This document shows, one piece after another, positions 14,540 to 54,500 of a DNA stretch of 64,000 bases. The notes under the pieces were generated by a model. The model searched no databases. It was not told the DNA's origin and saw nothing but the letters and a program-made list of their open reading frames with translations. Made by a program: the position numbers and the translations under genes. The stretch spans positions 20,221,521-20,285,520 of the forward strand of contig NC_134842.1 of NCBI RefSeq assembly GCF_965363235.1, read 5' to 3'. The DNA comes from Mytilus galloprovincialis (taxonomy: Eukaryota). Every line of letters starts with the position of its first letter. Position 1 is the first letter of the stretch.

Positions 14540-15310
14540 CTTCATACTTTGTATATAGATGCCTCATGTTACGACGTTTCCGTCAGTCACATGTCCAATG
14601 TCCTTGACCTCATTTTCATGGTTCAGTGACCACTTGAAAAAAAAAGTTTTTTTGTAATGTTAAATTCTCTCTGATTATAAGTAATAGGATAACTATATTT
14701 GGTATGTGCGTACCTTGCAAGTTCCTCATGCCCGTCAGACAGTTTTCATATGACCTCGACCTCATTTCATGGATCAGTGAACAAGGTTAAGTTTTGGTGG
14801 TCAAGTCCATATCTCAGATACTATAAGCAATAGGTCTAGTATATTCGGTGTATGGAAGGCCTGTAAGGTGTACATGTCCGACTGGCAGATGTCATCTGAC
14901 CTTGACCTCATTTTCATGGTTCAGTGGTTATAGTTAAGTTTTTGTGTTTTGGTCTGTTTTTCTCATACTTTATGCAATAGGTCTACTATATTTGTTGTAT
15001 GGAATGATTGTAAGGCGTACATGTCTAGCGGGCTGATATCATCTGACCTTGACCTCATTTTTATGGTTCAGTGGTGTATGGAAATGTTTTATGATCTATA
15101 TGTCAGTCGGGTAGGTTTTATTTGCGTTGACCTCATTTTCACGGTTTTATTGTTCAGTGTTAAGTTTTTGTGTTTTGGTCTGTTTTTCTTAAACTATAAG
15201 CAATAGGTCAACTTTATTTGTTGTATGGAAGAATTGTTAAAATGTCTGCCTGGCATGGTTCATCTGACCTTGACCTCATTTTCATGGTTCATTGGTCAAT
15301 GTTTAGTTAT
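14540..15310 (+). repeat. Tandem array of about 5 units of roughly 150 bp
   Basis: The core tgaccttgacctcattttcatggttcagtg recurs at about 14605, 14760, 14908, 15053, 15132 and 15271. The units also share the aataggtctactatatttggtatgtg...gtacatgtc blocks. Confidence 0.85.
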
Positions 15311-25781: not shown

Positions 25782-26148
25782 ATGAACAAACTTGTGTATT
25801 CCATATGGATATTGTTGACAATTGCTATAACGATTTTAACAATATTTTGTATATTTAACCCTGCATGGTATATACACAATAACCATATACATTCATTTGG
25901 ATTGACAGTATTCTGTGAGGGATTATCAACCGAGGATCAACAAATTCAAAGTCGGTGCCAAACATACGGAGGAACATTTGGTCTGGCGAACATACCATCT
26001 GGAGCGTGGCAAGCTTCGTTTTTGTTAATTTCTACAGGAGCATTTTCTTTCGGAGTCACTGTGATATTGGGAATATTGATACATTGTATCAGAGAGAGAT
26101 ACGTCTACAGTATAAGTTCACTTGTGCTATATCTACAAACATCGGCAG
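25782..26148 (+). CDS. LHFPL-like: Tetraspan membrane protein (LHFPL/TMHS-like) exon 1; ends in phase 1 at GCAG|gtaagt
   Basis: ORF MNKLVYSIWILLTIAITILTIFCIFNPAWYIHNNHIHSFGLTVFCEGLSTEDQQIQSRCQTYGG...ASFLLISTGAFSFGVTVILGILIHCI...LQTSA. TM1, a Cys-containing extracellular loop and TM2 are present. The (N/Q)P(A/Y)W(Y)I ... FGL..(F/Y)C.G motif resembles the LHFPL family. Canonical donor G|GTAAGT at 26149. Confidence 0.6.
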
Positions 26149-26649: not shown

Positions 26650-27420
26650 AGCTTTGAGGTTGAAAGATCAATGAAAAACCCGAATAAACAGTAAACTATA
26701 TCTATTATGCCGGGGTCACATATTGGCATATAGACCGGCGTGCACCAAATGTACAGAGAAAATTGGCAAAGTCGGTATACGCTAGTTGCACGCCAGAGAA
26801 GGCTAAGCAATCGTTAAACGCGCGTTGTTTAAGTTTGAATTACGTCGAAATACAAAGGTATACGCTTGGAGAACGCTTCAACTGGAGGAAATTTTGCAGC
26901 ATAAACATTTTCATCCAACTGAAGCGTGTGTCTAGCGTATACCTGTACGCTACACGTACGTTATACATACGCTACAAGCGAGTTTAACGCGCTACAGATA
27001 AGTTTGAGACACGTTTAGGGCACGTTTTATACGCTTCGAGATCGTTCGACTTTAACTTAAACGTATGCGGGTGTGTTTGTAACAAACACCATCTAATTGA
27101 ACGTCCAAGATACGACCGGGACGCGTCTCAAATATGTTAAAGAAACTTTTTTTCCTCGTAGCGTGTATTCATCTACGTTAGACAAACGCCAGGCATACAC
27201 AACCATACGTTTCTTGAAGGCCCGATAAACGCGTAGGTACGCTTCTCGTACGCCCAATTCACGATTAAAGCTCGTTGTGCACACGTTACAGATTTGATTG
27301 ACAGGTTGAATGCATCCAAAATTACTAACGTATTGGCAGCGGACATGATTTTCTAACACGCCCGGCGTACGTCGGAGCAATACGCTGATTTGTGACGCCG
27401 GTATTAGATAATACAGGTCG
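26650..27420. other. CpG-rich, GC-elevated block inside the LHFPL-like intron
   Basis: Dense ACGCG, CGTACG and TACGC motifs in an otherwise CpG-poor, AT-rich region. It carries overlapping long ORFs on both strands (26763-26987 +, 27093-27440 -) with no recognisable domain. Confidence 0.6.
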
Positions 27421-27512
27421 TATTTTTGAAATGAAAACATATTTCGTAAATAAATATTGTTCTAGTATACTTTTCCTAAAAATATTTACAATGTTTTATA
27501 TATATTTTTCAG

Positions 27513-27739
27513 TTTTGTTGATAATCTCGGCATTAGTTACATTTCCGGTAGGACTCAGCTCTCACTACTTCCGGTACTACTGCGGGGATTCTGCGTCTGT
27601 GTTTTATTCAGCTAACTGTTCCATAGGATGGAGTTATATGCTGGCAATCATGTCTGTATCACTGTCAATATTCTGCCCAGTTCTTTGGTGCTTTAAGGAA
27701 ATGAAATGGAATGAGTTTCAGTTTAAGGAATATGTATAG
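27513..27739 (+). CDS. LHFPL-like: Tetraspan membrane protein (LHFPL/TMHS-like) exon 2 (terminal, TAG at 27737-27739)
   Basis: Acceptor tatatttttcag at 27510-27512. Phase 1 joins G+TT to give ...SAVLLIISALVTFPVGLSSHYFRYYCGDSASVFYSANCSIGWSYMLAIMSVSLSIFCPVLWCFKEMKWNEFQFKEYV*. This supplies TM3, the second extracellular loop with C..C and a conserved W, and TM4. It resembles the C-terminal half of TMHS/LHFPL proteins (C.I.W..MLAI.S). Total about 197 aa. Confidence 0.6.
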
Positions 27740-38478: not shown

Positions 38479-39454
38479 GACATAATTTGAATAGCAATAA
38501 TCATTATGAAAAAGTTAAATGGTAATAAATCTATTTTGAAGTAATAACATTCACATATCCTGAAATAGTTAAGAAACTAAGATTCCAACACAATTTAGCA
38601 ATGTTGAACGTATGCTTTTTTAAATGTCTCTTTGAGATGTTTAGCTTTTTAGGGCCTGCAAATTCTTAGCTTTCAAATGTTCGGGTTGGTTTGAGTGGTT
38701 ATAAAAAACTAATGCCAGAAAAGCGCATTGGAAGGAAAGGATTTGTTGTGAAAACCAACCTCTTCATTTGTGTCAGACATCATTCCGTCCACATTTCGTT
38801 TTTCATGACTCTTTAGGAATTTTTTTTTCTGTATACTAGTAGTTTATATACGGTTTAGGTGAGTGGCTCTTTTGTATCTTAATTCTCTCTTTATGTCATC
38901 AGTCCAACTGAGGGTATTAAATACTTAACGCAATGTTTTCTGAGGACTGTATTATGGAATATGTCTCTCTATGGTTTTTTCTGGTTTATTTTACAAAATA
39001 CATTTCTTTTCCTAGTTGGTTTATGTTCTGTGATATCTTAATTAACATTGATTGTTTCTGTTTCCGATTCTTAAAAGGCAAAGCCTACTGTATTGAAGAT
39101 GATTTTAACCTTTCAGTACTAACTTTTTGTTTAAAAATAATTTTGAAGGTCGAGTTTGCTTATTTCTTTCTTTCTTTCATTTGCTTTTTTTAATTCTATT
39201 TAAACGTCATGGATGAGTCATGAGTCGTTTTCGACGTAACGTACGTCTTCCTTTGGCGTTTTTATTTTTAAGAATAGTATCTTTGCTGATTTTATTCTGA
39301 TTAAAAAGACATTCAATACGTTTATTTAAATATTGTTGAAATAAAATATTTTTTAAAAAGAACTGCAGTTCATTAAGTTCAATTCAATAATGTAGTGTCC
39401 ATGTGGTCTTATACTATAACTAACTCGAATGAAATATTTAGTTTACATTCTCAA

Positions 39455-39715
39455 AAGAGGGACGAAAGATACCAAAGGGACAGTCAAACTTACAACGCCA
39501 TGGCTAAAAATGAAAAAGACAAACAGAAAAACAATAGTACACATGCCACAACATAGAAAACTAAAGAATAAACAACACGAACCCCAATGACGTGAATTTG
39601 AAAAGCGAGCAACCCAACGGATGCCACATTTAGAGTAGAATTTTCGTACTCTTACGGAGCACCTGAGATCACCAGAGGTTTTTGGTGGGGTTCATATGGC
39701 TCCGTATTTGGTTTC
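39455..39715. repeat. Family T copy with a snap-back (inverted-duplication) structure: antisense body 39455-39600 then sense head 39620-39715
   Basis: aaagagggacgaaagataccaaagggacagtcaaactt...aacacgaacccca is followed by ggatgccacatttagagtagaattttcgtactcttacggagcacctgagatcaccagaggtttttggtggggttcat. The two halves are reverse complements around the tggggttcgtgtt junction. Confidence 0.7.
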
Positions 39716-40147
39716 TGTTTTCTGTAGCTTGTTTGGAAAGAAAAAGTTTACGGACATAGTTCACACTTTCCGTTATGAATTTACTATTATTGTATCGATA
39801 TCTCTTCCTGTTTTGGAATTACCAGTTTAAGGTGGCACGGTAGTATTTGCATTCCAGAATTTAGGTTGCTCTTTTGTGTACCCTACCTAAGCCAATGTAT
39901 CTGAACAGTGTGATGGGACAAAAAATACAGTATCAACTGTACACACTTTCCCAAACTGAGGAATGAATCAGGTGTTGAAAAATATGAAATAATTTTACAA
40001 ACAGATGAAAATGAATTTTTGAGAATTTTTTTAAATTGTGTATTCACTTCATAATAAAAGACCTATAAGCACTAGTGGCCTCAGGTTTTTAAAACAGCAA
40101 AATAAGTAAACGGTCATGATACACATTCAAATTCATTTCTGAATAGT

Positions 40148-40340
40148 AAAAGAGGGACGAAAGATACCAAAGGGACAGTCAAACTCATAAATCTAAAACA
40201 AAATGACAACGCCACGGCTAAAAATGAAAAAGACAAACAGAAAAACAATAGTACACATGACACAACATAGAAAACTAAAGAATAAACAACACGAACCCCA
40301 TCAAAAACTAGGGGTGATCTCAGGTGCTCCGGAATGATAA
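40148..40340 (-). repeat. Family T copy, about 300 bp downstream of the HSPA12-like stop
   Basis: aaaagagggacgaaagataccaaagggacagtcaaactcataaatctaaaacaaaatgacaacgccacggctaaaaatgaaaaagacaaacagaaaaacaatagtacacatgacacaacatagaaaactaaagaataaacaacacgaaccccatcaaaaactaggggtgatctcaggtgctccggaatgataag. Nearly identical to 39455-39600. Confidence 0.85.
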
Positions 40341-40662
40341 GTAAAATGAAAGTACTTCAGTTAACTGCGAATGTAGAATTTTTTGCAGTGTTAGAAAGTG
40401 GTGAAAATTATAAAAAAGCTATTAGTATCCCTTATGGGCCAAGAAATACTACCGTGCCACCTTAATAGTGATTCAAATATGATTGATATAAGCTATCCAC
40501 TAGTATGTATACGTATAAATAAAGATTTCAATGAATTTCTTTCGATTCTGAAATAAATTCGTATGTAAATATTTTCTTCAAAAACACAAATAATTAAGTT
40601 TTATAATAAGTAATCAAATGAAAGTGGAATTTTGATTTCATTCAAACGACTGATTTATTTTC

Positions 40663-41711
40663 TTATATCATTTCAATCGTAACGTTGTGATTCTTACCCA
40701 GTTCAGTTCCGGAAATTTGTACTTGTATTTCTGTTTCCCCTAAAACCACTTGTACTTTTATGTTTTCAGTAATCGTTGGATTTGGTTTTTCAACTTTGAT
40801 TACTCCCAATTCGGAACACCCTTCTTCATCCGTATACATGGGATTTTCTTTTTCTGTTTTGAAAATATGCAACTTGAATTCTCCGCCTTCACTTGGTCGA
40901 CTTATAGCCATTGTCTTAAAAATTTTGCCTGGTTGAATGGGTTGCTTACGCTTAAGAAATGCATCGAATAGACCAATACACTTGGCTTCACCATTTACTA
41001 TTTCAAGGTGGTTCTGATCATGAATTGCAGGGTCAAATGTTTTTTTCTTCCTAAACCCATATGTACACCTCGCTATTCTGTGAGCTATGATATTTGGTTG
41101 GTGACCAAACATTACTGCGCCTTGCATAACGGCTAAATCACAGTCCTTTGGCACGATAACTGTAAGTTTGGGAAAGGTATCTTTTACTGCCTTTTGAACA
41201 AGCATGCATTGTGAAAAACCTCCAACCAAAAGAATTTGAGTTATTCCATCGCAACATTTCTCAGAAAGAATGTCTAGCATAAGTTTAATCAGAGAATCAA
41301 TTGTTAACTGAAATAAAGATGTGAATAGACTAAATTCAAATCTTATTTTGTCTCCTTTTAGTGACACTTTTGATGAAAAGTCTGAAGACTCAATAACGGA
41401 TTTTAAAGTTTGTCCCAATTGTTCCTTACAAACAAGATTCAATGCATTAGGTATTTTCATATTTATTCGCCCAGTGGTATTAGGTTTAATTGATCTCTTC
41501 TTAGTTTCAAACTCTCTCGATAGATCAAGGTAATTAGCAAGATGTTCTCCTTTTAATGCATTCATTATTGCTGGATTGGTGATTTTCTCCATCAAATTGA
41601 AAAACTCAGCATCTACTGATGTTCCCCCACAATTACTACCAGAGGCAAAATATATTTCTTTTAGTCTTCCATTATTGATTTTTTCATGAACTGTTATATC
41701 AGCTGTGCCAC
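40663..41711 (-). CDS. HSPA12-like: HSPA12-like exon 4 (terminal, includes TAA stop at 40663-40665), 1049 nt
   Basis: Minus strand ttttag|GTGGCACAGCTGATATAACAGTT completes the codon carried over from exon 3, giving G-GTADITVHEKINNGRLKEIYFASGSNCGG... and a 349-codon C-terminal part. A possible AATAAA lies 11 nt after the stop (plus tttatt at 40647-40652). Confidence 0.85.
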
Positions 41712-41944
41712 CTAAAATTTTTGAAGTTATGAATATCACATTGAATATATGTACACATTTTAATCATTTTACAATGACTTGATCTCAGCTTTCTCAGATC
41801 TGAAATCATTATCCAAACCAAAATGATATGTTTAACAGTTTCATTTTACGCAATAACATTCCTTCAAGCATATGAATTCGAAAGACATTAAATAAAGCAC
41901 AATTGTATGTTTCTTTTTCACCTGTAAAAATTGCGAACAAATGG

Positions 41945-42150
41945 GTTTTTACATAAATAAGGCCGCCAGTTTTCTCGTTTGAATGGTTTTACATTGTCAT
42001 TTCTGGGCTTTTAATAGCTGACTATGCGGTAAGGGTTGTGCTCATTGTTGAAGGCCGTACCGTGACCTATAGTTGTTAATTTCTGTGTCATTTTGGTCTC
42101 TTGTGGAGAGTTGTCTCATTAGCAATCAATCCACATATTCTTTTATTTTT
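41945..42150 (+). repeat. Interspersed repeat family A copy (5'-truncated), inside HSPA12-like intron 3
   Basis: ggccgccagttttctcgtttgaatggttttacattgtcatttctgggcttttaatagctgactatgcggtaagggttgtgctcattgttgaaggccgtaccgtgacctatagttgttaat...gttgtctcattagcaatcaatccacat. Confidence 0.8.
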
Positions 42151-43264
42151 TTATTTTTCCAGTTTTATTGCAAAGTTTGCAAACAATGGCGTTGTAATAC
42201 TGAACAGTAAGAAAACATATTGCTTACAAGAGCTTATGTTATAAGTACTCGAACGCAGTTTTTAATTCAACAAGAAATATTCTCCATGACATCATTTGAC
42301 AAAGCTCTACTCCATGCTCTAATTTTTAATAATTTGAATTTCAACAAAAGCAATAGAAATATATTGTTTGATTTCAATAAATGTCATTAGCTGTCAGTAG
42401 CTTCCATCCTTATTCATCAAATGAAAAACCATATGCTACTAAACACAAGTGTTGATGTTAGTCATGTTAATCCAGTAGCAAAATATAGAAATTATTTCCG
42501 TTGAAATTTGTTCGTGTTTACTTAAAATACCACCTTGCAAACTGTGACATGTTTACTTCAATTAAACTTGGAGAATTCACCTCTTGCTATGGTGCCTTAT
42601 AATCGTAACTGTAATAAAGCCTGTAACGAATTTTGTCCTACTAAACATTTCCTGGAATATGATTGATTAAAAGCAACCGCGTGGAGTCCGTGTATATTTC
42701 ATATAAGGTAAGTAGGATGGTGTGGTTTATTTCAATACACGGTAAGTAGTGGTGTTACATCCCCTTATAAAAACACGGTATTGAGGGGAAAGCTTTAAAG
42801 ATTTCAACAGACAATGCAATCATGATGGTAAACAATTGAAATAAATTAACAAAACACATAAAGCTAACAAGTTGTTATAATTAGGTCTTTACACTTTTCT
42901 GTGGAAAGACCTATTGTTTTTCTTCTGATTATTATTTTTTCTTCTTCAGCCAAATTTTGTTCTTGCGATAAACGTTTGTTTCGCAATATGTCGCTTAGAT
43001 ATTTGGTATATGATATCGAACAGTTTATGCGCTTTTGAAATTTACCCTGCGTAACCGAATACTTTTCTTTGTAGGAGTTATCTCCCCAAACACTGTTTTC
43101 CTTGTGTCCACAACTCCTTCGCAACCGTAAAAGATTACGACAAATTTATTTTATAAAATTGCTCGTTATATCCTTCGCATGATTTGTCCAATTTCGACCG
43201 AAGCAATATGAACGCTTGATATGAGAGTTATATCCCTTTTTGTATTTGAAATTTTGAAATGTAT

Positions 43265-43700
43265 CTTAAACTGGAACACCATAAGTGATAGAGACCTAGG
43301 ATCTTTTGATTTGAGGTCCTTGGTCCAAAACAATGAAAATTAGGTCAAGGTCAAAGGTCAAGGTCATATTCTAATTTTTGAATTTGTCTTATTTTCACTC
43401 ATTTTCATTAACCTTATAAGATATCGACAAATTATTTTGTATAAATTGTTAGATGCGACATGTGGTAACTAAATAATTTTAGTTGAAAGGGTGCGTAAAC
43501 AATGAATGGGAGTTTTAGCCCCTATCATATCTTAAATTATGTTTAAAGTGATATAACTTATTAACCATACATATTAGAGACTAGGGTCATTTGATTTGAA
43601 ATCCTCAGTTTGTGACCTTGAAATTGAGGTCAAGGTCATAGGTTAATTTGACGTTCTAGATTTTGACCTTTGCTTTAAATTCATATCTATACATCATAAA
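43265..43700. repeat. Two direct repeats of about 200 bp rich in GGTCAAGGTCA, related to the 150-bp family; inside HSPA12-like intron 3
   Basis: 43290-43380 gatttgaggtccttggtcc...ttaggtcaaggtcaaaggtcaaggtcatattc versus 43590-43660 gatttgaaatcctcagtttgtgaccttgaaattgaggtcaaggtcataggtt. Confidence 0.65.
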
Positions 43701-44645
43701 GCCATATGAACTGACCTTTTAGACCGATTTTTTATATTTTAATATCAAAATAGATATTAACTGGTGGAAAGACCTTCAATTGTTCTCTGAACAATTGGTT
43801 TTTAATTGACATTTGTTTTTGTATCGACTAATGATAGTAGGTTATTAATACTAACGGTATCGAAGAGTTAATCACTTTAATAGATCACTCGTCTAAATAC
43901 CACATGTTAAGATAGTCGGTAAGATAAATTCGTTACAAAGTGTGTTAGTGAACTAATACGATATATATGGGATTAGTAAATTCGAAATGGAGATTTAAGC
44001 TTCGCTCTCGCCCCATATGTAATTTACTGACCCCATATATATCATATTAGGTCATTAGCACTCTATGTAACTAATAATCTTCGAGAGTAACGTTTTCAAT
44101 GAGATATATAAATGCCATACAATGAAGATATGATATATTAGGAAATGGGTAGTTGGCAATTTTAAAGCTGACGTCATCACGTTTGTCAAAAATTTTAGTT
44201 TGAAGTCCTCTTTCTGTGTCAATTTCTATGTAACAATCAATCTTTGACATAGCCATTCTAGTTTTGGTAGTATCTTTTATACCCTGTTTACATAGGTATA
44301 TGTGATACTAACAATTATTTTGGTATTTTGATTATAATCAATATATCTGACGAAAATTTGAAAAACACATGGTTAGATGCTTTTTCTTTTATTTTCTTTG
44401 AAAAGTTTAAGCACGAATGGTGCATCATATGAGTTACAAACAAAGAAGCCAGTAAAGATACACAATAAAAACCAATTTGGAATACCGACTGGCTGTTGAT
44501 ATATCAATCGAATGAACGCAAACAATATATTGTCGATGTATAAGATGTATAACGGACTGACTTGCTTGAATATATTTGATACATATATAGTATTGGAAAT
44601 AAGACGCTTTTTTAAAATTTTGATTAACTTCTAACTATAACTTAC

Positions 44646-44799
44646 CTCCCAAGTCAACCACTATATATTGTGTGCCTACCGGAGCAACAACTATTTCAGA
44701 GTCAGCATCAACACTTTTTTTAGTAGGCAGCGTTTGACAGTAAATTGAGGCTGCCTCCGGTTCAAGGGCTATACGTAGTTTGTTTGGATGTATACCTGC
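44646..44799 (-). CDS. HSPA12-like: HSPA12-like exon 3, 154 nt, ends in phase 1
   Basis: Minus strand tcacag|GCAGGTATACATCCAAAC... encodes AGIHPNKLRIALEPEAASIYCQTLPTKKSVDADSEIVVAPVGTQYIVVDLG(G), ending TTGGGAG|gtaag. No ORF of 60 aa or more was called here, so the exon was found by reading the sequence directly. Confidence 0.75.
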
Positions 44800-44839
44800 C
44801 TGTGATAATACCTATCTTTAAACAATTTTATAATAAATA

Positions 44840-45060
44840 AAGGCAACAGTAGTACTTCACTGTTCAAAAGTCATAAATTGATTGAGAGAAAACAAGTTTT
44901 GACTACAAACTAAAACAGAAAAACACATCAACTATAAGAGGAACTCAACGAAACAACAGAACACTGAAGTGCAATAAAAAACAAAAGATAATGCAACATA
45001 CATAGAAACGAACAATTAGATAACAACTGCCATATTCCTGACTTGATATAGGACATTTAA
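44840..45060 (+). repeat. Interspersed repeat family B (about 220 bp), inside HSPA12-like intron 2
   Basis: aaaggcaacagtagtacttcactgttcaaaagtcataaattgattgagagaaaac ... tcaactataagaggaactcaacgaaacaacag ... caactgccatattcctgacttgatataggacattt. Other copies at 61630-61850, 13240-13450 and 2762-2885. Confidence 0.8.
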
Positions 45061-45600
45061 AAAAAAACCAGTGGGTTGAACCTGGTTTTGTGTCAAACTC
45101 AGAATAAATTCAATATTCAAGCATTGACTATACATAGATTAATGCTTTTCCACTCTATAATATGTATAAGTACACAGCCTAGTGATTAAGTGTAATGACG
45201 CCATACCGATCTTAAAAAAGGACCATAATTTTACATATCCATTGTAAAAATAAAATTAACCTTGGTCAAGTATTACGAGGTCGTTCATTTGAATATTGTA
45301 AAATACCACAAGAGTAACGAGTAGGTACGAACATTCATCCAAAATGTGCAATTGGACTATTGATAAAATTGAGAATGGAAATACGGAATGTGTCAAAGAG
45401 ACAACAACCCGACCAAAGAGCAGAAAACAGCCGAAGGTCGTCAATGGGTCTGCAATAAAGCGAAGATATCTAGCACTCGGAAGCTGCCTTCAGCTGGCCC
45501 CTAAACAAACATGTGTACTAGTTCAGTGATAATGGACGTCATACTTAACTCCAAAATATATATTGAAAATAAACTAAATTTCCCCTTTAATACTATCTTC

Positions 45601-45669
45601 GCTAACCAAGGGTTACGATCCACTCCCCTCTTCTCTATAGAGTAGAGTGGATCGTAACCCTTGGCTAGC
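45601..45669. repeat. Near-perfect 25-bp stem / 17-nt loop hairpin inside HSPA12-like intron 2, 40-105 nt from the exon 2 donor
   Basis: gctaaccaagggttacgatccactc-ccctcttctctatagagta-gagtggatcgtaacccttggctagc. Arms are 24/25 complementary. Confidence 0.9.
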
Positions 45670-45706
45670 AAAGATGCTCGAATACATATGTATACCAAAC
45701 AAATAC

Positions 45707-45925
45707 CTGTTCAGCACTTGTCCTCATAAACAGTTTTGCATTATCATCCCATATGGCTGGCACTGTTAGTACCCACAGAATATCATCTATTTGGATATTT
45801 TTCACCAGTTTATTAACTCTTTCAATGAAATGATCTTTCAGTGCTTTGATTGATAAGGAAAAGACATCTAAAGCTAATAATGATTTGCCACTAATATCTT
45901 CAATCATTAAATCTTTCGATAAATT
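45707..45925 (-). CDS. HSPA12-like: HSPA12-like exon 2, 73 codons, phase 0
   Basis: Minus strand ttttgtag|AATTTATCGAAAGATTTAATGATTGAAG... encodes NLSKDLMIEDISGKSLLALDVFSLSIKALKDHFIERVNKLVKNIQIDDILWVLTVPAIWDDNAKLFMRTSAEQ, ending GAACAG|gtatttg. Confidence 0.75.
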
Positions 45926-47405
45926 CTACAAAACATGTGCAACATTAGATAGCAACACAAAATAAGGTTATTTTAATTCAAAATAATTCATTATCGGAGT
46001 TTCAGATATATATTTTGACATTTTACAGAGAAAATAATAATTATGATAATGGATCAAAACTCGAAATTAATGGTATTTTCTCATATATCATCAATGTGAA
46101 AAGGCTATCTTATGAGATAGGAAATGACATAGCAAAAAGTAGACATTTGCCTCGCTTACATCAGATAGAAGTACAAAGAAATCAAAAATGTTTGGAATTT
46201 GTATAAGAAATCTATGATTTGATTAAAGCTAGTAGTAATTTTGATTACACCGGAAGTACTTCTTTCCAATGATTTTGAAATTCAAAGGATAGATCAACCT
46301 TCGATTGTTCTCCGAACAGTAGGTTTTTAATTGTCATTTTAATTCTTTAAATTATTTTATTAATTGACGTTGCATGTTTTCCCCTATAAGGTTGCCTTCA
46401 CGATCCTCTACCAGATTTTTCACGATTTAACCGCAATTCTTTTTTTCACTATCGTTTTTTTCGATTAACTAAACGACGGTTGTGATTATTCAAACTATTT
46501 TTTCTAATTCATTTTTCCCCCAAATTTTTAAATGCTACTTGCAAGTAATATGTTTTCAGTAACTCATTTCCATCATAGGTCGTAAACTTTATTTTGAAAA
46601 CTACGTGCTTGAATGGTCACTAACCACGAGACACATTACATAAAACAATCTAATATATGATTTTTTTTCAATCATTAATGAAAGTGAAATAGTAAAATAA
46701 TCATTCGCTTTAGCAGCCAGTATGGTCCAAGTTTGTCAAAGTAAGCTAAGAAACATTGATGATGAATTATTCCCTTGTAGGTGTATAATTCGACCTCATT
46801 GAATCCGTATTCATGTGAACTTCAATTCAAACCCTTATCTAGAGATGGATAACTCATGAATTGTGCGTGTAAAGTTATTTAAATGAAAAGAATGTCAATA
46901 TTGAAAGTGAAACAAAGGTAAATCATTTAACTAATTGATTAGATCCACAAAAAAATCACTCTTATACAGGAAAAACGATCATAAATATACATTTCTAATC
47001 TATAATGAAAAACTAAACCTACAAAAATCCAATTGCACGAGTTCGCTTAATCTATTTATATCTATCTTTATGATAACATGGCTTATATGGTCATCGTATA
47101 ACTTCGGAGGTCGATAGTTAATTAGATAGCGTCTAGACTAAAATACACACAAAATGAACCTGCATATTATCGTACCAATGCAATCTTAACTGTTTGTTAT
47201 AGACTTTTAATAGTTTTGATAAATGTTTTACATTGTTATAAATCAATTATGATAATTTAAGTCAAAACGCTGAAAATAAATTTGACAGCTTTTTTGGAGA
47301 AAGTTAAATGCCATTGGCTATTTTTGTCAAATAACTTGTGATGGAAATTTTAAAATAAGTTCTAAATCGCAAATAATATAATACATAATTTAATCATATG
47401 TGTAC

Positions 47406-47714
47406 CTTGTTTTGATATAAGTACATTTTAATTCTGGAAAAGTAGAAATAATCTTCATGAAGTTGGTCACTAATTAAATCGGCATATTCGTTTTCTGCTT
47501 CGTATCCAAATGCAACAAATTTTTTGTCACTATCAAGTAGCAGACTTGTAGGGGTTTTGAGCGACGCGAGTTGTGTACTCCCAGCATTCCATGACTGGTT
47601 TGCATGGATCTCTAGTGGATCTCGTTTGAAATCGGTACGGGAAGAAAACGCATACCCAGAATAAGTTGTTCCAAAATCTATTGCAGCAACATATAGATAA
47701 TTAGATTCGGTCAT
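47406..47714 (-). CDS. HSPA12-like: HSPA12-like exon 1 (ATG at 47714 to donor); 103 codons. In-frame TGA lies 12 nt upstream of the ATG.
   Basis: ORF MTESNYLYVAAIDFGTTYSGYAFSSRTDFKRDPLEIH...MYLYQNK. On the minus strand the exon ends CAAAACAAG followed by GTACAC donor (gt at 47405-47404). Confidence 0.8.
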
Positions 47715-49554
47715 TGTATCAGTTCAAGTGTACCTTTCACACAATAAAACATTTACAGCATGGATTCATCTAGTTGTCAAATACCGGCTGAAATTAAATA
47801 AATAGTTTTAAATGAATATGGTGGTAAAAGTTATTTAAACATATCAAAAAGACAATATATAAGTATATTTTCATATAGTCTCTTCTTTTATCCTTCGTAA
47901 GATATCATTGTAGAAACATATCACAACAAAGAAGAAGCATTTGAAAATCCAAAACACAACCATAAATGGAAACCTGTGAATGAAAATAAAATAACATTTT
48001 ATTAAAGGTGCCTTTCGTCAGGAATATTTCAACCCCAAAATATGAAAGTAAAAGATACATAAGTGCATTGATATGGAAAATGGGAAATATTATGACCAAA
48101 CGAGATCCAAAACTAATAACCCAATTGCAATCCATCAAAAAGCAACTTTGATTTTAGTAATAGGAAGTCTCTATAATTATGTTAACGGGGAATTAAAGAC
48201 ATAAAGGTCATAGTATAGACGCACTGCATACTGAGCAGGTGCTCCTCACAGGACCTAGCGATACAGAAGTGTATGCTGTGATTGTTTTTCGGTCTTTTTC
48301 GTTTTTTGAAATGAAGTTTTCAGTTATTTTTTACTTTAATATTATTTTGTGTCAATAACATATATTTCGCATAACCTTCGTTTGTTTACAATGTTGTTAA
48401 ATCGGGTCGGTCTATTTGACTTACAGATGAATTTTTCACTGAAATTCCTATCTATATTTCAATTTAGTTATTTCAAATGAATCACTTAACGCGTAATATT
48501 TCATCCTATGCTATATTTAGAAATCAAGGTACAACCACATAATCTTTCTGAATAACCGTCCTTATCATTGGATTTTAACTTTCCATGAGCAACGGAGCCT
48601 CCAGCTTTTCAAGTACTGATCATCTTTCCATTAAGACTTTGTTCATCTCTTGTTTTTTGTCAGAATTGTGTTTTATATTCAATTTTCATCTCTTATTCCG
48701 GGAAAAAAATATTTCTTTGAACGCTTACCTTTCGACGTTGTACTGAACGTTTGAAGGCCAACTCGCGTCCACATTTTGTAGTAACCAATTTACATCAACT
48801 GTGTCGATTTTCAATTCGGCGAGCTGTTGTTGGACCAGATATGAAACTTCGGTTAAGAATTGAATCAACAATCAACTTAATGAAATGAATGAGCTGTAAA
48901 AAATTCGGTCAACGTCTATAAATGAAATCCATGGTTGCGAAGACAGTACTGAATGGTTCCACGTGACTATTCAAAGTTCACATACTTAATATTATTTCTT
49001 TTATCTACTCGAATAATGTCGCATAATCTTATTGATTTATATCTATTTACCCTCACTTAAAGATAGGTCAAAAGATATAAAATTACAAGGTTAAAAATGT
49101 GCGACGCATTTTGTTTTTATTCGTAATATTTTAAACGCGATAGTCACGATAAAGTGCCATGGCCTAATCGGGGCTTAAGCGCGATAATTTGATCCACTAA
49201 TAAAGTGCGATGGTCTGTGCTTTTCATTTTAACACGTTAAAGTGCATTTTCCCACAAAATATCAACGTTAGCAACGTTCAACAGTATTAAATAAAATTTA
49301 AATAAAAACAGCTAGGGTACCAAAAACAAGTATACCTTTTTACTTTCTAATTAATAATTCTATAAAAAGAATACATTTTTTATTTTAAAATGACAGCAAC
49401 CTAACGGACAGATGCATAGTATCATCATATGATTGCCAATATGACTTAATGTATGCAACCTTTGTTACAGTATAACCTTTAACGTGGAAAAATCGATTTG
49501 GCTTACACTGCATAGTATTTTTTATTAAGACCAAAGGGTCTCAAAAGAAGTGTG

Positions 49555-50818
49555 TGAAGTTAGCAGCCGGTTCGTTATTCGATATTCGATATTCAAAATC
49601 TAGTGAAAACCATAAAAAAACAAATACTTTATAACATTAAAAGCATTATTTTTATAGTTAAGAGGACTTTGAAGATACGTAAGAAATCGTTAAATGACCT
49701 CTTCAAGGTGTCGTAAATTCTCGTTGTCAAATATAAACCCTTTTCCAAGTTGCATATTTGTCTTTATATGTTATATAGATTTTTGTCAATAAAACGACCT
49801 CAAAAATTCCTCTATGTTGTATAGATTTTTGTCAATAAAACGACCTCAAACAGTGGCGGATCCAGAACTTTTTGTAAGGGGGGGGGGGGGGGGCCGCTCC
49901 AGTCACATTTCAGTGATTCCCTGTATAATCAACCAAATTTTTCCCACGAAAGGGGGGGGGGGGCGGGCCCCTCAGCCCCCTGGATCCGCCTATGTCAAAG
50001 ATTTACTTTATATATGCTATTTTTTAAAACAAAAAGAAACACCGATAACTCTAGAAACATTTAGAATTATAAATAGAAATATTTATGGAAACCCAAAAAA
50101 AAGAAATACATAGCGAAAACCTACCTCAGACCGCTTAAATGAGAGTGATGAGTCCCCTGGTCTTAAAATGTCCTTAAAATGTAACCAAATCATAGACTAT
50201 ATATATTAAAAAAAAGGTGTATTAGAAGGGGTTTTTAGGATAATGTCATCTTCGATATCTACGGAGGGCTTAGATTGTCACTTTTCAGCTAAAAAATGTC
50301 AAAATTGTACGACAAAGGGCACAGGGCAATTGTGAGACCCCTGATATCTCAATCTTTCTACTATTATGTAGACATTAATCAAAAGGTAGACACAAACGTA
50401 ACTAACTTGGGTACACTTCCGCTCTCTCATGTTTACGGAGCGCCTAAAGTGCCAGTTGGATATTCAAAATATATAGCGAAAACCTACCTTAGACCGCTTC
50501 AATGAGGGTGAAACCGCTCTGGTCTTCCAATGTCTATCAAATTCAACCAAATCATAGACTCTGTATATGCAAAGGTTGTATTAGTGTCAATCAAAAATGT
50601 TGACGTCACAACCGTATTGAGTTGGGTTTTTTTTTGTGTTTTTTTTAACATAAAAAACGTATAATTCTTAAGTAATATTATCATGTCATCATTTTCATTT
50701 AACATGTTTAAAGAGTTTTTCTATGATAACATAATATTGTTTAATATCGAACTGGCTGTTAGCGGCCAGTTGGATATTGAATATCGAATATCGAATAACG
50801 AACCGGCTGCTAACTTCA
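49555..50818. mobile_element. 1264-bp element bounded by perfect 41-bp terminal inverted repeats (non-autonomous DNA-transposon/MITE-like or foldback element)
   Basis: Left end 49555-49595 tgaagttagcagccggttcgttattcgatattcgatattca. Right end 50778-50818 is its exact reverse complement, tgaatatcgaatatcgaataacgaaccggctgctaacttca. The interior carries about 95-bp direct repeats (50108-50200 and 50472-50565), a 45-bp tandem duplication (49768-49850) and a nested poly-G palindromic unit. No transposase-like ORF. Confidence 0.7.
49855..49990. repeat. Poly-G palindromic mini-element: 11-bp inverted repeats GGCGGATCCAG / CTGGATCCGCC flanking G16 and G12 runs
   Basis: ggcggatccagaactttttgtaa-G16-ccgctccagtcacatttcagtgattccctgtataatcaaccaaatttttcccacgaaa-G12-cgggcccctcagccccctggatccgcc. 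This causes the spurious ORF 49814-50113. Confidence 0.8.
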
Positions 50819-51183
50819 TATACATGTAACCCCAGTGTAAAACAATTCAAATGACAAAAATGGCAACGTGAGTTAAATACATGAACAAAACAATAAACGA
50901 ACAGAAAATATGAAATATGCAAAAAAAAAAATACCACTAAATTCCGGATAAACTAACTACTGCAATGTAACTATTACACTTTTAGGACAACTTTCAGATC
51001 GTACGTTAAATAATAACAAGAATACATGTTTGTAGTATGAAATATATATCCAACCACAAATGTAGTTCATGTATATATTCAGTTATTATAAGGCCTTCAA
51101 AGTAAAGTCTTCATTGTGTGTAAATTTGAGTTTTTGATTGGACTGCGTTAAGTCATTCTAATTTACATTTTATAGTGGTGTCT

Positions 51184-51553: not shown

Positions 51554-54500
51554 TATTGGACAATGCTTCATAACAAGCTGTATATAGTTATACAGTGAGC
51601 AGTGTAACAAATATCAACAAAGAAAGACTACGGCTTGATGTATAGATAAAACGATAAAAAAGGCATAGGAACTCAGCAACAAACGAAACCCATTGCCTGT
51701 ACCAAATTCCCGTTCCTCCATTGGACTTTGGCGTGTCATACCATCGCACTTTTGCGTGTTATCTGATTGCACGTTCAAACCAAAAAAAAAAACTATCGCA
51801 CTCCAGCGACTGACACCATCGACCTTAATCGTAGACCAATCTGACTTAAGATTGACCATCATGCTTTATAGTACCATTGCACTACATAATCCTTCATATC
51901 TGTATATGAATAATGAAGCAAAAAGGTAGAAAGAATATAAGAGGCAATACCTAACAATAAAAAATAGAAGAAATCTAGTAGATAAATGCATCATTAGACA
52001 TGGTTCAAAACAAGCTCAAAATCGGCTCTTATAGACAAAGTCAAGCCCAGTCGAGACTAGATATAAAGGTCGAGGATGAGTCGAGACAGTATTCAGTCTC
52101 TATTTAAATGATCAAGTACTCAATCAGAATTATTAGGTAGCAATACACAGTCAGAAGATTAGGTTCGCATTATGGCCATGGTGAATTTTTAAAATATGAT
52201 AGTTTTTGTACAATAAAATTAATGTTTAGATAGTGGATGAATAGTATGGCCTTCCAAGTGGATTTACATTAATATTTAGATTGTTTTAGCATATTTTATA
52301 GGCATCGATTTTGTTTGACAGTCCGTACTTTGCTATCCGTACCGCCCAGAAATTATTGTAGTGTTTTTCAACAAAGATTTGACGTTCGATTGTTTTCAAT
52401 TAAATTTTTTGGAAAAACGTGCAGAAATGCATATGATTTTTTTGAACCTCTTGATATATAAATGTCTATGTTTTCTGATAAGGTATCACTCTCATCGATT
52501 GCAACTTTCCTTTGGACCAAATTATGGAGACTTTTGGGACATTTTCACCCCTTTCCTTGCAATATTTTGTATCAAATAATTGCAGATTTTTGCCATGATT
52601 ACACCAAAAAGATATTATATTTCACCATTATAACTATTGGAAATAAAATCTATGGAAGATTCTTTTTCCATAAATATATATACACATGCAGAAGATAATT
52701 ATTAAGCCTTATTTGTAAGAAAGGCAGGGAAACAGGTAGTTTTAAAATTATAAGTGTCATTTTTTTCCCTAACTGTATATTGCTACTTTGAATAAAGTCT
52801 AGAACAAAGTCGAGTACATATATGTATTGAACTAAATACAAATATCTGATATAATGGTGAAAGAGTTCAACATATGAACAAACTATGAAAATCAGTAGAA
52901 ATGGGCATTACACATCAGATCAGTACAAAACAAAAAAAGTAATAAAAGCATAGACCGGACATGACAGAGTATTTATATATCCCTACAACAAAAAAGACAC
53001 TTAATACAGATCTTCGAATACTCGCAGGGACTGATATTTTGTTCAAGTCCAATAACATCTTTTTAAAAAACATTTATCTAAGATTTTGGTATCAATCAGT
53101 AAACTGCCAACATTTTGTGGATCTAGTGTAAAGGCGACATTTCCAACCAGACAAAACGTGTCCCTATCCAATGCCAAAATATAGGTATCGACACATTGTA
53201 GATAAAGGCAACAGTAGTATACCGAAAGTGATAAATCGATTGACAGTGAATATGTATATAACATTAAAATTAGTTGGGTGTTAAATTATGGGTAGCAAAA
53301 CAGTAGTACCAATTAAACAATGTTTTCAACGAACAATTATCTTCAAGATAACGATAAGTGTTACTAAAACTATCAATTAAATGCAGTTGAGACCGGTCTA
53401 CACTAGCAACTATTATTTATATCAACATGAACAATACAAGATCAATTCTGTCATAAAAAAAGAGGCGCAGTAATGTCTGCTTGAATTAACTCTTCCAATT
53501 ATGTCAATATAAAATATGTAAAATAAAAGTCATACTAGTGTAAGGTTCAACTATCTATATATAAAACAAGGTTTAAGCCACCATTTTCTTTGGAAAAGTC
53601 TAAAATGTGTCACTTGTTTCTCATTTGTTCCGTTGTTTGATATAGTCTCAAGTTTTGTCTTTTTTATGAATTTATCCATTTTGTTTTAATTTACCTTCGA
53701 TTTCAGGCGGTTTTTAACGACAAGTAGATCTCTCTTTACCAAAAAGTCATCGGCATTTCATGGATTAGGACTGCTATTTTAGAATATCAGTTTTTTTTTA
53801 ATTCCGCCATATATTCATGTGGCTGTCTTAAATTAAGGGATGAATTCAGTTATTTTAATCGTATAAAATATTTTTTGACTCTGGATTTGGTGTATATTAC
53901 AGATCCTTTATAGTCAGTGCAGAGTTAAAAAGTAATTTTAGGATAATATAGGAGATATTATGGAAATAATTGTGCAAATCGTGATACAAGCATGAAATTC
54001 GGTATGATGGTCGACCAAATGATAAATAAAAGAAAACAGCTGCTGGCCATAAAAAAATTCCATTTTTTCAAGATGACCACCGCTCATTTTACAAATGGCG
54101 TCATACCCAATTGGCTATACTTCGTAAATCCTTTGAAAGTTGTGTTATAGGTTTAATCCAATGTAAAGTTTGATAAAAAGTAGATAACAGTTCCCAAATA
54201 CGATGAAACAGTACATAAATGACGAAAAGTGCCTTCCGGTTCAAAAATGGCGGCAAAAACGTGGAAAATTTTATTTTATTAATTTTTTTCTGATTTACAA
54301 CAGATATCACTTATTTTGTTAAGTTCAAATACCTAGTTTGGTTAAAAATACAAGTTGCGTATCTTTATTTGATTATTTGAAAGTTGCCAATACACAAACT
54401 CGTACAAGGAAGGCCAGAACGATGGCATTTAAAGTTACCAACACAGTTTTATGATTCATCTGTATTTCAAAAGTTCGTGACACGAGTGGGCAACGGCAGC

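Follow-up and report, generated by a model that had tools for sequence, protein, structure and literature searches.

On the minus strand of the window, the whole 64 kb stretch of Mytilus galloprovincialis DNA analysed here, four coding exons join in frame to give 1731 nt encoding 576 aa and a stop, with GT..AG borders at all three introns and no internal stop. We hold with high confidence that the locus is an intact, single-copy Mytilus gene for a 576-aa HSPA12-type atypical Hsp70. Its exons, introns and neighbouring repeats are collected in Table 1.

Table 1. Coding exons, introns, repeats and hairpins at the locus (positions within the window)
Feature	Position	Strand	Remarks
Coding exon 1 (aa 1-103)	47406..47714	-	ATG 47714-47712; donor GT follows
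Coding exon 2, 219 nt (aa 104-176)	45707..45925	-	tblastn match; found in both other assemblies
Coding exon 3, 154 nt	44646..44799	-	IALEPEAASIYC and start of VVDLGGGT
Coding exon 4, 1049 nt (aa 228-576)	40663..41711	-	stop TAA 40665-40663
Intron 1, 1480 bp	45926..47405	-	GT..AG; detectable repeats 3-4%
Intron 2, 907 bp	44800..45706	-	GT..AG; about half with copies elsewhere (44832-45092, 45360-45581)
Intron 3, 2934 bp	41712..44645	-	GT..AG
Interspersed repeat, ~200 bp, intron 3	41946..42144		at least 5 further window copies (725, 14035, 16850, 24094, 51350)
Interspersed repeat, ~260 bp, intron 2	44832..45092		copies at 2749, 13241, 37945, 60710, 61638
Short interspersed element, ~195 bp	40147..40341		322-516 nt downstream of stop; flanked by TTTTAC direct repeat
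Second copy of that element, 5' part only	39453..39586		19-nt deletion; 1077-1210 nt downstream of stop
Intron 3 block, ~907 bp	42883..43789		missing from GCA_900618805.1; AATTA on both sides
Near-perfect hairpin, 37-nt arms, 7-nt loop	45595..45675		starts 31 nt downstream of exon-2 donor
Long imperfect hairpin, intron 3	43928..44075		63-nt arms, 81% complementary

Gene model and orthologues

The four-exon model proposed in an earlier note on this DNA is exact: the product is 100% identical to RefSeq XP_076106867.1 ('heat shock 70 kDa protein 12A-like isoform X1', M. galloprovincialis), and the proposed junctions are those of the M. galloprovincialis RefSeq, M. edulis RefSeq and older M. galloprovincialis ENA annotations. 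Its finer points hold as well: exon 3, described there as absent from the list of open reading frames, lies outside every listed frame of at least 40 aa; intron 3, put at ~2.9 kb, has the length given in Table 1; and the motifs DFGTTYSGYA and VDLGGGT both stand in the translation. Exon 1, a 100% tblastn match with a counterpart in the M. edulis and older M. galloprovincialis assemblies, carries phosphate-binding motif 1 (AAIDFGTTYSGYA). Exon 3 is 100% identical to its M. edulis counterpart, and exon 4 completes the ATPase domain and adds the C-terminal beta-domain.

The M. edulis orthologue XP_071180502.1 matches at 571 of 576 residues without gaps, and the allele VDI81650.1 from the older M. 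galloprovincialis assembly (GCA_900618805.1) at 557 of 576; in these two entries, as in XP_076106867.1, the exon borders are identical to those found here. Identity between assemblies reaches 98.0-99.2% in exons, against 97.4% (M. edulis) and ~93% (GCA_900618805.1) over the whole gene region. The older allele lacks ~1.2 kb of insertions in the introns and 3' flank, its intron 3 being ~1 kb shorter (1914 bp).

An HSPA12-type Hsp70 with a lid-less beta-domain

Assignment to the Hsp70 family, made in the earlier note from motifs, is borne out by a Pfam HSP70 (PF00012) match at residues 101-430 (E 1.9e-12; 46.7 bits, well above the cut-off of 20.6). The narrower HSPA12-type call is likewise upheld: two vertebrate HSPA12A sequences align from residue 3 to 576 with 286-295 bits (E 4e-92, at 30% identity, and 7e-96), whereas the match to canonical Hsc70 is weak, at ~30 bits. 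The first of these was found with a human HSPA12A sequence as query, to which the entry, named HSPA12A, is 100% identical. These comparisons support membership of the HSPA12 subfamily, as judged from sequence similarity. HSPA12A and HSPA12B constitute human group I, the atypical Hsp70s, in Brocchieri et al. 2008 (PMC2266713). With the vertebrate pair the mussel protein shares end-to-end homology (30-32% identity), the motifs DFGTT.SGYA, KTPT, W.(L/I)TVPAIW, IALEPEAASIYC, VVD.GGGT.D(I/L)TVH, LVGGF, KGAV(M/L)FG and a C-terminal FG(D/E)TEI, and a plan in which a divergent ATPase domain is followed by a domain resembling the beta part of the substrate-binding domain, with neither lid nor EEVD (PMC13580251). 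It differs in length (576 aa vs 675-686 aa for human HSPA12A/B), lacking both the ~65-aa N-terminal extension of vertebrate HSPA12A and a ~50-aa insert between IALEPEAASIYC and the DxGGGT motif. The gene has four coding exons, as do its Mytilus paralogues, vs 12 in human HSPA12A/B (PMC2266713), which is a lineage difference and not a criterion of homology. The proteins, 99% identical, are named '12A-like' in M. galloprovincialis and '12B-like' in M. edulis by NCBI, so that the A/B label is arbitrary in bivalves, in line with PMC11268181.

Residues ~1-430 form a nucleotide-binding domain of the Hsp70/actin fold that retains its phosphate-binding and catalytic residues. The phosphate-1 motif (D13-G15-T16-T17), catalytic Glu, phosphate-2 and adenosine motifs are all present, and alignment with Hsc70 equates D13, E189, D225, G227-G229, T230, D232 and G391-G392 with Hsc70 D10, E175, D199, G201-203, T204, D206 and G338-339, respectively. 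Which residue corresponds to Hsc70 K71 is uncertain: pairwise alignment places D79 there, and the invariant FKM motif suggests K96 instead. K96 and the aligned active-site residues are invariant among 39 family members.

Structure prediction shows residues ~432-576 as a divergent Hsp70 substrate-binding beta-sandwich, a region in which the Pfam search found no match at the sequence level. The full-length AlphaFold model (pLDDT 88.4) is closest in the PDB to full-length DnaK and BiP (E ~1e-23). When the C-terminal 145 aa were modelled alone (pLDDT 88.7), the best 50 PDB matches were all Hsp70 chains, mostly isolated substrate-binding domains and otherwise full-length or lid-truncated Hsp70s, aligned over 137-152 columns with E ~2e-5 and TM 0.52-0.61. 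Canonical Hsp70s (DnaK, HSPA8, BiP) thus have the nucleotide-binding fold, catalytic residues and beta-sandwich fold in common with the mussel protein at marginal sequence similarity (~30 bits, 16-19% identity), but their helical lid and EEVD/TPR-binding tail are missing from it: the structure model has no helix past residue 431, and the protein ends ...NVTIEMI directly after the beta-domain.

Repeats, insertion polymorphisms and hairpins

The interspersed repeats that the earlier note saw in the introns and 3' flank are real and have further copies in the window; its statement that they make up most of the intronic and flanking sequence is not borne out. Another window copy was found for 20% of intron bases (intron 1 3%, intron 2 48%, intron 3 21%), and for 25-29% of the first kb on the 3' side and 0% on the 5' side; the intron figure rises to 29% once paralogue loci of M. 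edulis, 84 kb in all, are included. All these shares, 20-29% for the introns, are lower bounds from ~150 kb of mussel DNA searched (window plus 84 kb). Further copies of the ~200-bp intron 3 repeat lie at paralogue loci, and the ~195-bp element of the 3' flank has many copies both there and in the window. The latter is missing from the older M. galloprovincialis assembly and is therefore an insertion polymorphism. Its two 3'-flank copies (family T of the earlier note) are near-identical as claimed, at 95-96% in two ungapped blocks (85.6% with gaps, owing to a 19-nt indel). They are spaced 695-714 bp apart; only the first falls within 700 bp of the stop, where the earlier note had placed both (Table 1).

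Three repeat or indel blocks are missing from another M. galloprovincialis assembly. The ~907-bp intron 3 block contains an internal 104-nt direct repeat (43278-43381 / 43564-43666), has a 77% copy at an unrelated M. edulis locus, and is probably a polymorphic mobile-element insertion. It also holds the GGTCAAGGTCA repeats singled out previously (43343-43366, 43628-43638), three of which lie in intron 3 (43343, 43356, 43628) and six in the window, vs 0.01 expected by chance. The introns and 3' flank have passively gathered short mobile elements, some of them still polymorphic between haplotypes, and nothing suggests that they play a role in the gene's function.

Where one strong hairpin had been noted, we find two. 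The one next to the exon-2 donor (dG -64.4 kcal/mol, z -11.65 vs shuffles) has no second copy in the DNA searched, and its sequence is 98.9% conserved in M. edulis; that in intron 3 (dG -60.7 kcal/mol, z -10.2) is conserved there too. No Rfam family matched the latter at threshold, and its sole match, MIR7994, was sub-threshold and on both strands, which we read as chance.

Paralogues, alternative readings and proposed function

A homologue search returned more than 2000 matches at E<=1e-3, nearly all bearing bivalve HSPA12-like names, of which the best 120 are almost all bivalve, mostly ~575-580 aa long and 40-58% identical. Three M. edulis paralogues on other chromosomes (45-50% identity) have the identical four-coding-exon layout and begin at the equivalent start position. 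Length, domain plan and, in the Mytilus paralogues examined, exon layout are common to the bivalve-expanded family, to which the gene belongs, as the earlier note had suggested. Within it the gene stands rather apart: beyond its orthologues the best Mytilus matches are only ~50-58% identical, and the nearest paralogues of the same species ~50-56%. The suggested tandem family is not seen here: tblastn of the 64 kb window revealed no second HSPA12-like coding segment, and at the M. edulis and older M. galloprovincialis loci the 10 kb on either side contain no further gene call. Tandem arrangement is common in the family, though not universal. The Pacific oyster Magallana gigas has 89 HSPA12 genes (PMC11268181).

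The 'complete gene' of the earlier note would be overstated if the transcript had additional 5' exons, mostly non-coding, or occurred in other isoforms, which we consider possible though rather unlikely. The RefSeq name 'isoform X1' implies that one or more further isoforms have been predicted; ~70 nt upstream of the ATG an acceptor-like sequence, a pyrimidine-rich tract and then CAG (tttatttaatttcag), makes an upstream non-coding exon possible; and in human HSPA12B an intron interrupts the 5' UTR (PMC2266713). However, three independent annotations agree on the ATG and the extent of the coding sequence, the paralogues begin at the equivalent position, and an added UTR exon would leave the protein unchanged. 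We think it very improbable that hairpins or repeats of the introns serve the gene, for example by regulating splicing, yielding small RNAs or acting as AGGTCA response elements of nuclear-receptor type, and are not passive mobile-element debris. The hairpins do fold much better than shuffled sequences (z -11.7 and -10.2), their identity in M. edulis is 97.6-98.9%, and one of them lies close to a splice donor, but this conservation only equals the locus background between the species (97.4%) and therefore carries no signal, nor does any Rfam family match at threshold. The AGGTCA direct repeats of the intron 3 block resemble nuclear-receptor half-sites, yet the block is missing from another M. 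galloprovincialis haplotype with an intact gene and is copied at an unrelated locus.

We consider it very unlikely that this paralogue was recently inactivated or is decaying, so as to be a pseudogene or a relic without transcription that merely keeps an open frame. Bivalve HSPA12 genes do turn over fast, often in hemizygous presence/absence regions (bioRxiv 10.1101/2020.09.15.298695), and the 3' flank is dense in mobile elements. No transcript evidence for the gene came to light: the sole Logan member of the product's 90% cluster, a 358-aa sequence, equals the unspliced exon-4 ORF, so that its source is genomic or unspliced sequence, and no spliced transcript is shown by that cluster (n=1). 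Nor does the whole 64 kb window contain a canonical trimeric heat-shock element (nGAAnnTTCnnGAAn), which leaves HSF-driven heat inducibility unsupported. Decay is nevertheless difficult to reconcile with a frame that stays open, and splice sites that are all kept, in three assemblies of two species, with exons better conserved than introns, and with the retention of all catalytic and family-invariant residues. From few substitutions, dN/dS is 0.15 against M. edulis (5 non-synonymous, 9 synonymous) and 0.34 against the older M. galloprovincialis assembly (19 aa, 34 nt differences), not ~1.

We know of no HSPA12 protein with an established mechanism. The protein is probably cytosolic, given that no obvious N-terminal signal peptide was recognized by eye. 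It would bind and hydrolyse ATP, and its nucleotide state would govern how the lid-less beta-domain binds clients; with no lid, binding and release could be fast, which might suit a holdase or co-chaperone more than a foldase acting alone. HSPA12A and HSPA12B have no lid, are of unknown function and are massively expanded in bivalves (PMC13580251); Mytilus has many such paralogues, and HSPA12 transcript sets specific to a stressor are reported in M. edulis (PMC8774603). The gene is already known and annotated, and is an ordinary member of this bivalve-expanded family: it would be one of tens of bivalve HSPA12 paralogues, subsets of which may be induced by heat, salinity, toxins or pathogens.

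Gene model and family assignment

The four coding exons (table) join into an uninterrupted open frame of 1731 nt, which encodes 576 residues and ends in a TAA stop, and all three introns start with GT and end with AG, so that the minus-strand model proposed in the earlier note is exact. The motifs it had read, DFGTTYSGYA and VDLGGGT, are found in the translation, and intron 3, put at ~2.9 kb, measures 2934 bp. A tblastn search of the window with the product retrieves exactly the four exons and nothing else notable, and an exact-sequence look-up identifies it as RefSeq XP_076106867.1, 'heat shock 70 kDa protein 12A-like isoform X1 [Mytilus galloprovincialis]'. Reading the raw sequence without tools had therefore recovered the RefSeq gene model exactly, even exon 3, whose 154 nt are indeed absent from the listing of ORFs of at least 40 aa.

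The M. edulis protein XP_071180502.1 differs from the product at 5 of 576 positions and is gap-free at every junction, and VDI81650.1, from the older and independently annotated M. galloprovincialis assembly, differs at 19. The proposed junctions were checked by mapping the window exons onto the orthologous M. edulis locus and onto the locus in the older assembly (GCA_900618805.1); exon ends are identical, AG/GT are kept, and the spliced translations of both loci equal their deposited proteins. The four-coding-exon layout is common to three M. edulis paralogues (45-50% identity, on other chromosomes), whose junctions fall at equivalent residues (~103/104, 176-179 and 228-230). The gene model is therefore correct and typical of the family. 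A search for transcripts of the gene found none; the cluster of its product has a single Logan member, which is the unspliced exon-4 ORF. An AATAAA hexamer at 40654-40659 (minus strand) starts 4 nt past the stop codon and is a possible polyadenylation signal, although such a hexamer is weak evidence in DNA so AT-rich.

Membership in the Hsp70 family, as the earlier note had it, is borne out by a Pfam HSP70 match of 46.7 bits (E 1.9e-12) covering residues 101-430 only. A protein search returned >2000 homologues, and among the best 120 almost every one is a bivalve protein annotated as HSPA12A-like or HSPA12B-like. HSPA12 membership was tested by direct alignment and not by these names. The reference, a vertebrate cluster named HSPA12A (P0127, 1071 members), was found with a human HSPA12A sequence, which is 100% identical to P0127 over its full length. 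BLASTP aligns mussel residues 3-576 to residues 69-690 of this reference at 30% identity (E 4e-92) and the product to turtle HSPA12A at 32% (E 7e-96), whereas the closest solved structures by sequence, Hsc70 ATPase domains, reach a marginal 30 bits; the HSPA12-type call is upheld. Homology to vertebrate HSPA12A reaches the last C-terminal residues of the mussel protein, with the characteristic family motifs in common, but the vertebrate N-terminal extension (~65 aa) and an insert of ~50 aa before the DxGGGT motif are missing from the mussel protein.

Coordinates of features of the HSPA12 gene and its surroundings, with aligned active-site residues of its product
Feature	Window position or Hsc70 counterpart	Strand	Basis or remark
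Coding exon 1	47714-47406	-	spliced translation
Coding exon 2	45925-45707	-	spliced translation
Coding exon 3	44799-44646	-	154 nt; spliced translation
Coding exon 4	41711-40663	-	spliced translation
~195-bp element	40147-40341		self-comparison
Cut-down copy of ~195-bp element	39453-39586		self-comparison
~200-bp element	41946-42144		self-comparison
~260-bp element	44832-45092		self-comparison
Further repeat	45360-45581		self-comparison
Block missing from older M. galloprovincialis assembly	42883-43789		~907 bp; AGGTCA repeats; AATTA flanks
Block missing from older M. galloprovincialis assembly	40152-40339		195-bp element; TTTTAC flanks
Block missing from older M. galloprovincialis assembly	41825-41907
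Residue D13	D10		alignment to Hsc70
Residue E189	E175		alignment to Hsc70
Residue D225	D199		alignment to Hsc70
Residues G227-G229	G201-G203		alignment to Hsc70
Residue T230	T204		alignment to Hsc70
Residue D232	D206		alignment to Hsc70
Residues G391/G392	G338/G339, adenosine-binding glycines		alignment to Hsc70

Active site, fold and predicted activity

The active-site residues aligned to Hsc70 (table), from D13 to G391/G392, are invariant in 39 of 39 family members, and the invariant K96, in an FKM motif, may be the less clear counterpart of the catalytic K71. The AlphaFold model that was based on the family alignment is confident (pLDDT 88.4, pTM 0.88) and places an ATPase fold ahead of an all-beta domain, and the top PDB matches to this full-length model are full-length DnaK and BiP (E ~1e-23). 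Pfam finds no meaningful family in the C-terminal 145 aa alone and does not reproduce a precomputed weak 'DUF8340' label from the database. Modelled on their own (pLDDT 88.7), the same residues have as their top 50 matches Hsp70 chains over 137-152 columns, mostly isolated substrate-binding domains, at E ~2e-5, TM 0.52-0.61 and 10-17% identity. The helical lid and the EEVD tail are both absent from the protein, in agreement with a published account of HSPA12A/B as proteins without a lid, whose mechanism is untested (PMC13580251). Modelling thus shows the C-terminus of HSPA12 to be an Hsp70 substrate-binding beta-domain without a lid, which matches published views and is nothing new in kind.

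In the best-supported reading of these features, the protein would be an ATP-regulated, lid-less client binder. It is probably cytosolic, as no signal peptide is seen in its N-terminus, and would probably act beside canonical Hsp70s in stress and immune responses of the kinds already linked to bivalve HSPA12 paralogues (PMC8774603, PMC11268181). The canonical heat-shock element has no match in the window in either trimer phasing, with ~1 expected by chance, which leaves HSF-driven induction of the gene unsupported.

Repeats, insertions and an inversion around the gene

Self-comparison shows that the interspersed repeats (table) are genuine: for each there are several further copies, either in other parts of the window or at M. 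edulis loci that are unrelated. The earlier note had held that they make up most of the intronic and flanking sequence, which is not established: 20% of intron bases recur in the window and 29% have another copy once 84 kb of M. edulis loci are added, both figures being lower bounds from the ~150 kb of mussel DNA searched. By the same copy search, intron 1 and the 1 kb just upstream of the gene are all but free of repeats. The two 3'-flank copies had been described as near-identical and as lying within 700 bp of the stop. They align at 95-96% identity in two blocks with a 19-nt indel in between, but the ~700 bp is the distance from one copy to the other, and only one of them is that near the stop. 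The GGTCAAGGTCA repeats are real, with 6 matches in the window against 0.01 expected. Three exact sites outside intron 3 stand at 14897-15275 (minus strand) with 147-221-bp spacing; they match the intron-3 repeat over its 25-nt core at 92%, which places that family also ~28 kb away. A tRNA scan for tRNA-derived SINEs found none, and a functional reading of the repeats was considered and rejected. A perfect 22-nt inverted repeat, TTAAGGTGGCACGGTAGTATTT, at 39827-39848 and 40444-40465, is kept in M. edulis; the pair encloses 595 bp of 3' flank, the 195-bp element included, and may be the termini of a larger element of foldback or MITE-like type.

Three blocks of the gene region are missing from the older M. 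galloprovincialis assembly (table). Those flanked by AATTA and by TTTTAC resemble mobile-element insertions that are polymorphic and carry target-site duplications, and part of the 907-bp block is found again at an unrelated locus at 77% identity. Neither the M. edulis nor the older M. galloprovincialis locus has the 1283-bp block at 49550-50832. This block carries 46-bp terminal inverted repeats that are 97.8% identical, and it resembles a non-autonomous DNA transposon inserted specifically in this haplotype, ~1.8 kb upstream of the start codon. A segment of ~1.9 kb (52033-53944) is inverted relative to both loci, and a search for inverted repeats bounding it found none of note. Near an M. 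edulis HSPA12 paralogue (locus L004), a retroelement integrase-like ORF (Pfam Integrase_p58_C, 27071-27727) lies 5 kb downstream, which fits the idea that mobile elements crowd HSPA12 loci. On a small scale, the present locus cleanly illustrates how mobile-element insertions within and beside an HSPA12 gene can be polymorphic.

Hairpins, allelic divergence and family setting

The strong hairpin announced in the earlier note is real, as is a second one, and both are far more stable than shuffled controls. One, at 45595-45675, is a near-perfect structure of 81 nt located 31 nt downstream of the exon-2 donor; the other spans 148 nt in intron 3. Either could be a working RNA element of a stress gene, for example a small-RNA precursor or a splicing switch that depends on structure or temperature. 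More mundanely, they could be foldback mobile elements. Both are single-copy in the window and M. edulis DNA searched, and their conservation in M. edulis is no better than that of their surroundings. An Rfam search of 39000-49000 gave sub-threshold matches only. That to MIR7994, at 38 bits where the gathering score is 100, falls on both strands of the palindrome and was put down to chance similarity with a hairpin.

Against M. edulis, 14 of 1731 coding nt differ (9 synonymous, 5 non-synonymous; dN/dS 0.15), and against the other M. galloprovincialis allele 34 differ (98.0% identity; dN/dS 0.34). These substitution counts, small as they are, point to an intact gene under purifying selection, and a pseudogene reading was considered and rejected. 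Exon 1 holds 10 of the 14 differences from M. edulis, its identity being 96.8% against 99.5-100% for exons 2-4. The 9-kb gene region (39716-48697) is 97.4% identical to M. edulis and ~93% identical to the older M. galloprovincialis locus, so that the window haplotype is nearer the M. edulis reference (5 aa differences) than the GCA_900618805.1 haplotype (19 aa). Introgression of the allele between the two species could account for this nearness; the more mundane alternative is that the species complex, being highly heterozygous, harbours deep allelic polymorphism. Taken jointly, we consider it very improbable that either one of the hairpins is a working RNA element or the allele has introgressed.

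The window has few long ORFs and is rich in A+T, each 2-kb block having 27-36% G+C, as expected of animal nuclear DNA. The tandem family suggested earlier is not seen: tblastn finds no second HSPA12-like gene in the 64 kb, the M. edulis and older M. galloprovincialis loci have no further gene call in the 10 kb to either side, and the nearest paralogues in the two species are ~50-56% identical. On these grounds the gene is a dispersed, fairly old lineage, as judged from the sequences compared, and not a member of a visible tandem array. ORF segments at 25782-26126 and 27530-27736 (plus strand) match Pfam L_HMGIC_fpl (LHFPL tetraspan family; E 2.3e-11 over profile positions 4-112 and E 1.9e-10 over 123-172) and probably represent two exons of a gene for an LHFPL-like membrane protein, ~13 kb away from the HSPA12 gene.

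The gene itself is already known, being annotated in RefSeq and belonging to a well-documented bivalve expansion; biologically it is one more member of it, and it matters little beyond quality control. The family has grown mainly through tandem duplication (PMC11268181) and is often found in hemizygous regions (bioRxiv 10.1101/2020.09.15.298695), and its molecular role is still unknown (PMC13580251). It is of interest for stress tolerance and for presence/absence variation in mussels.
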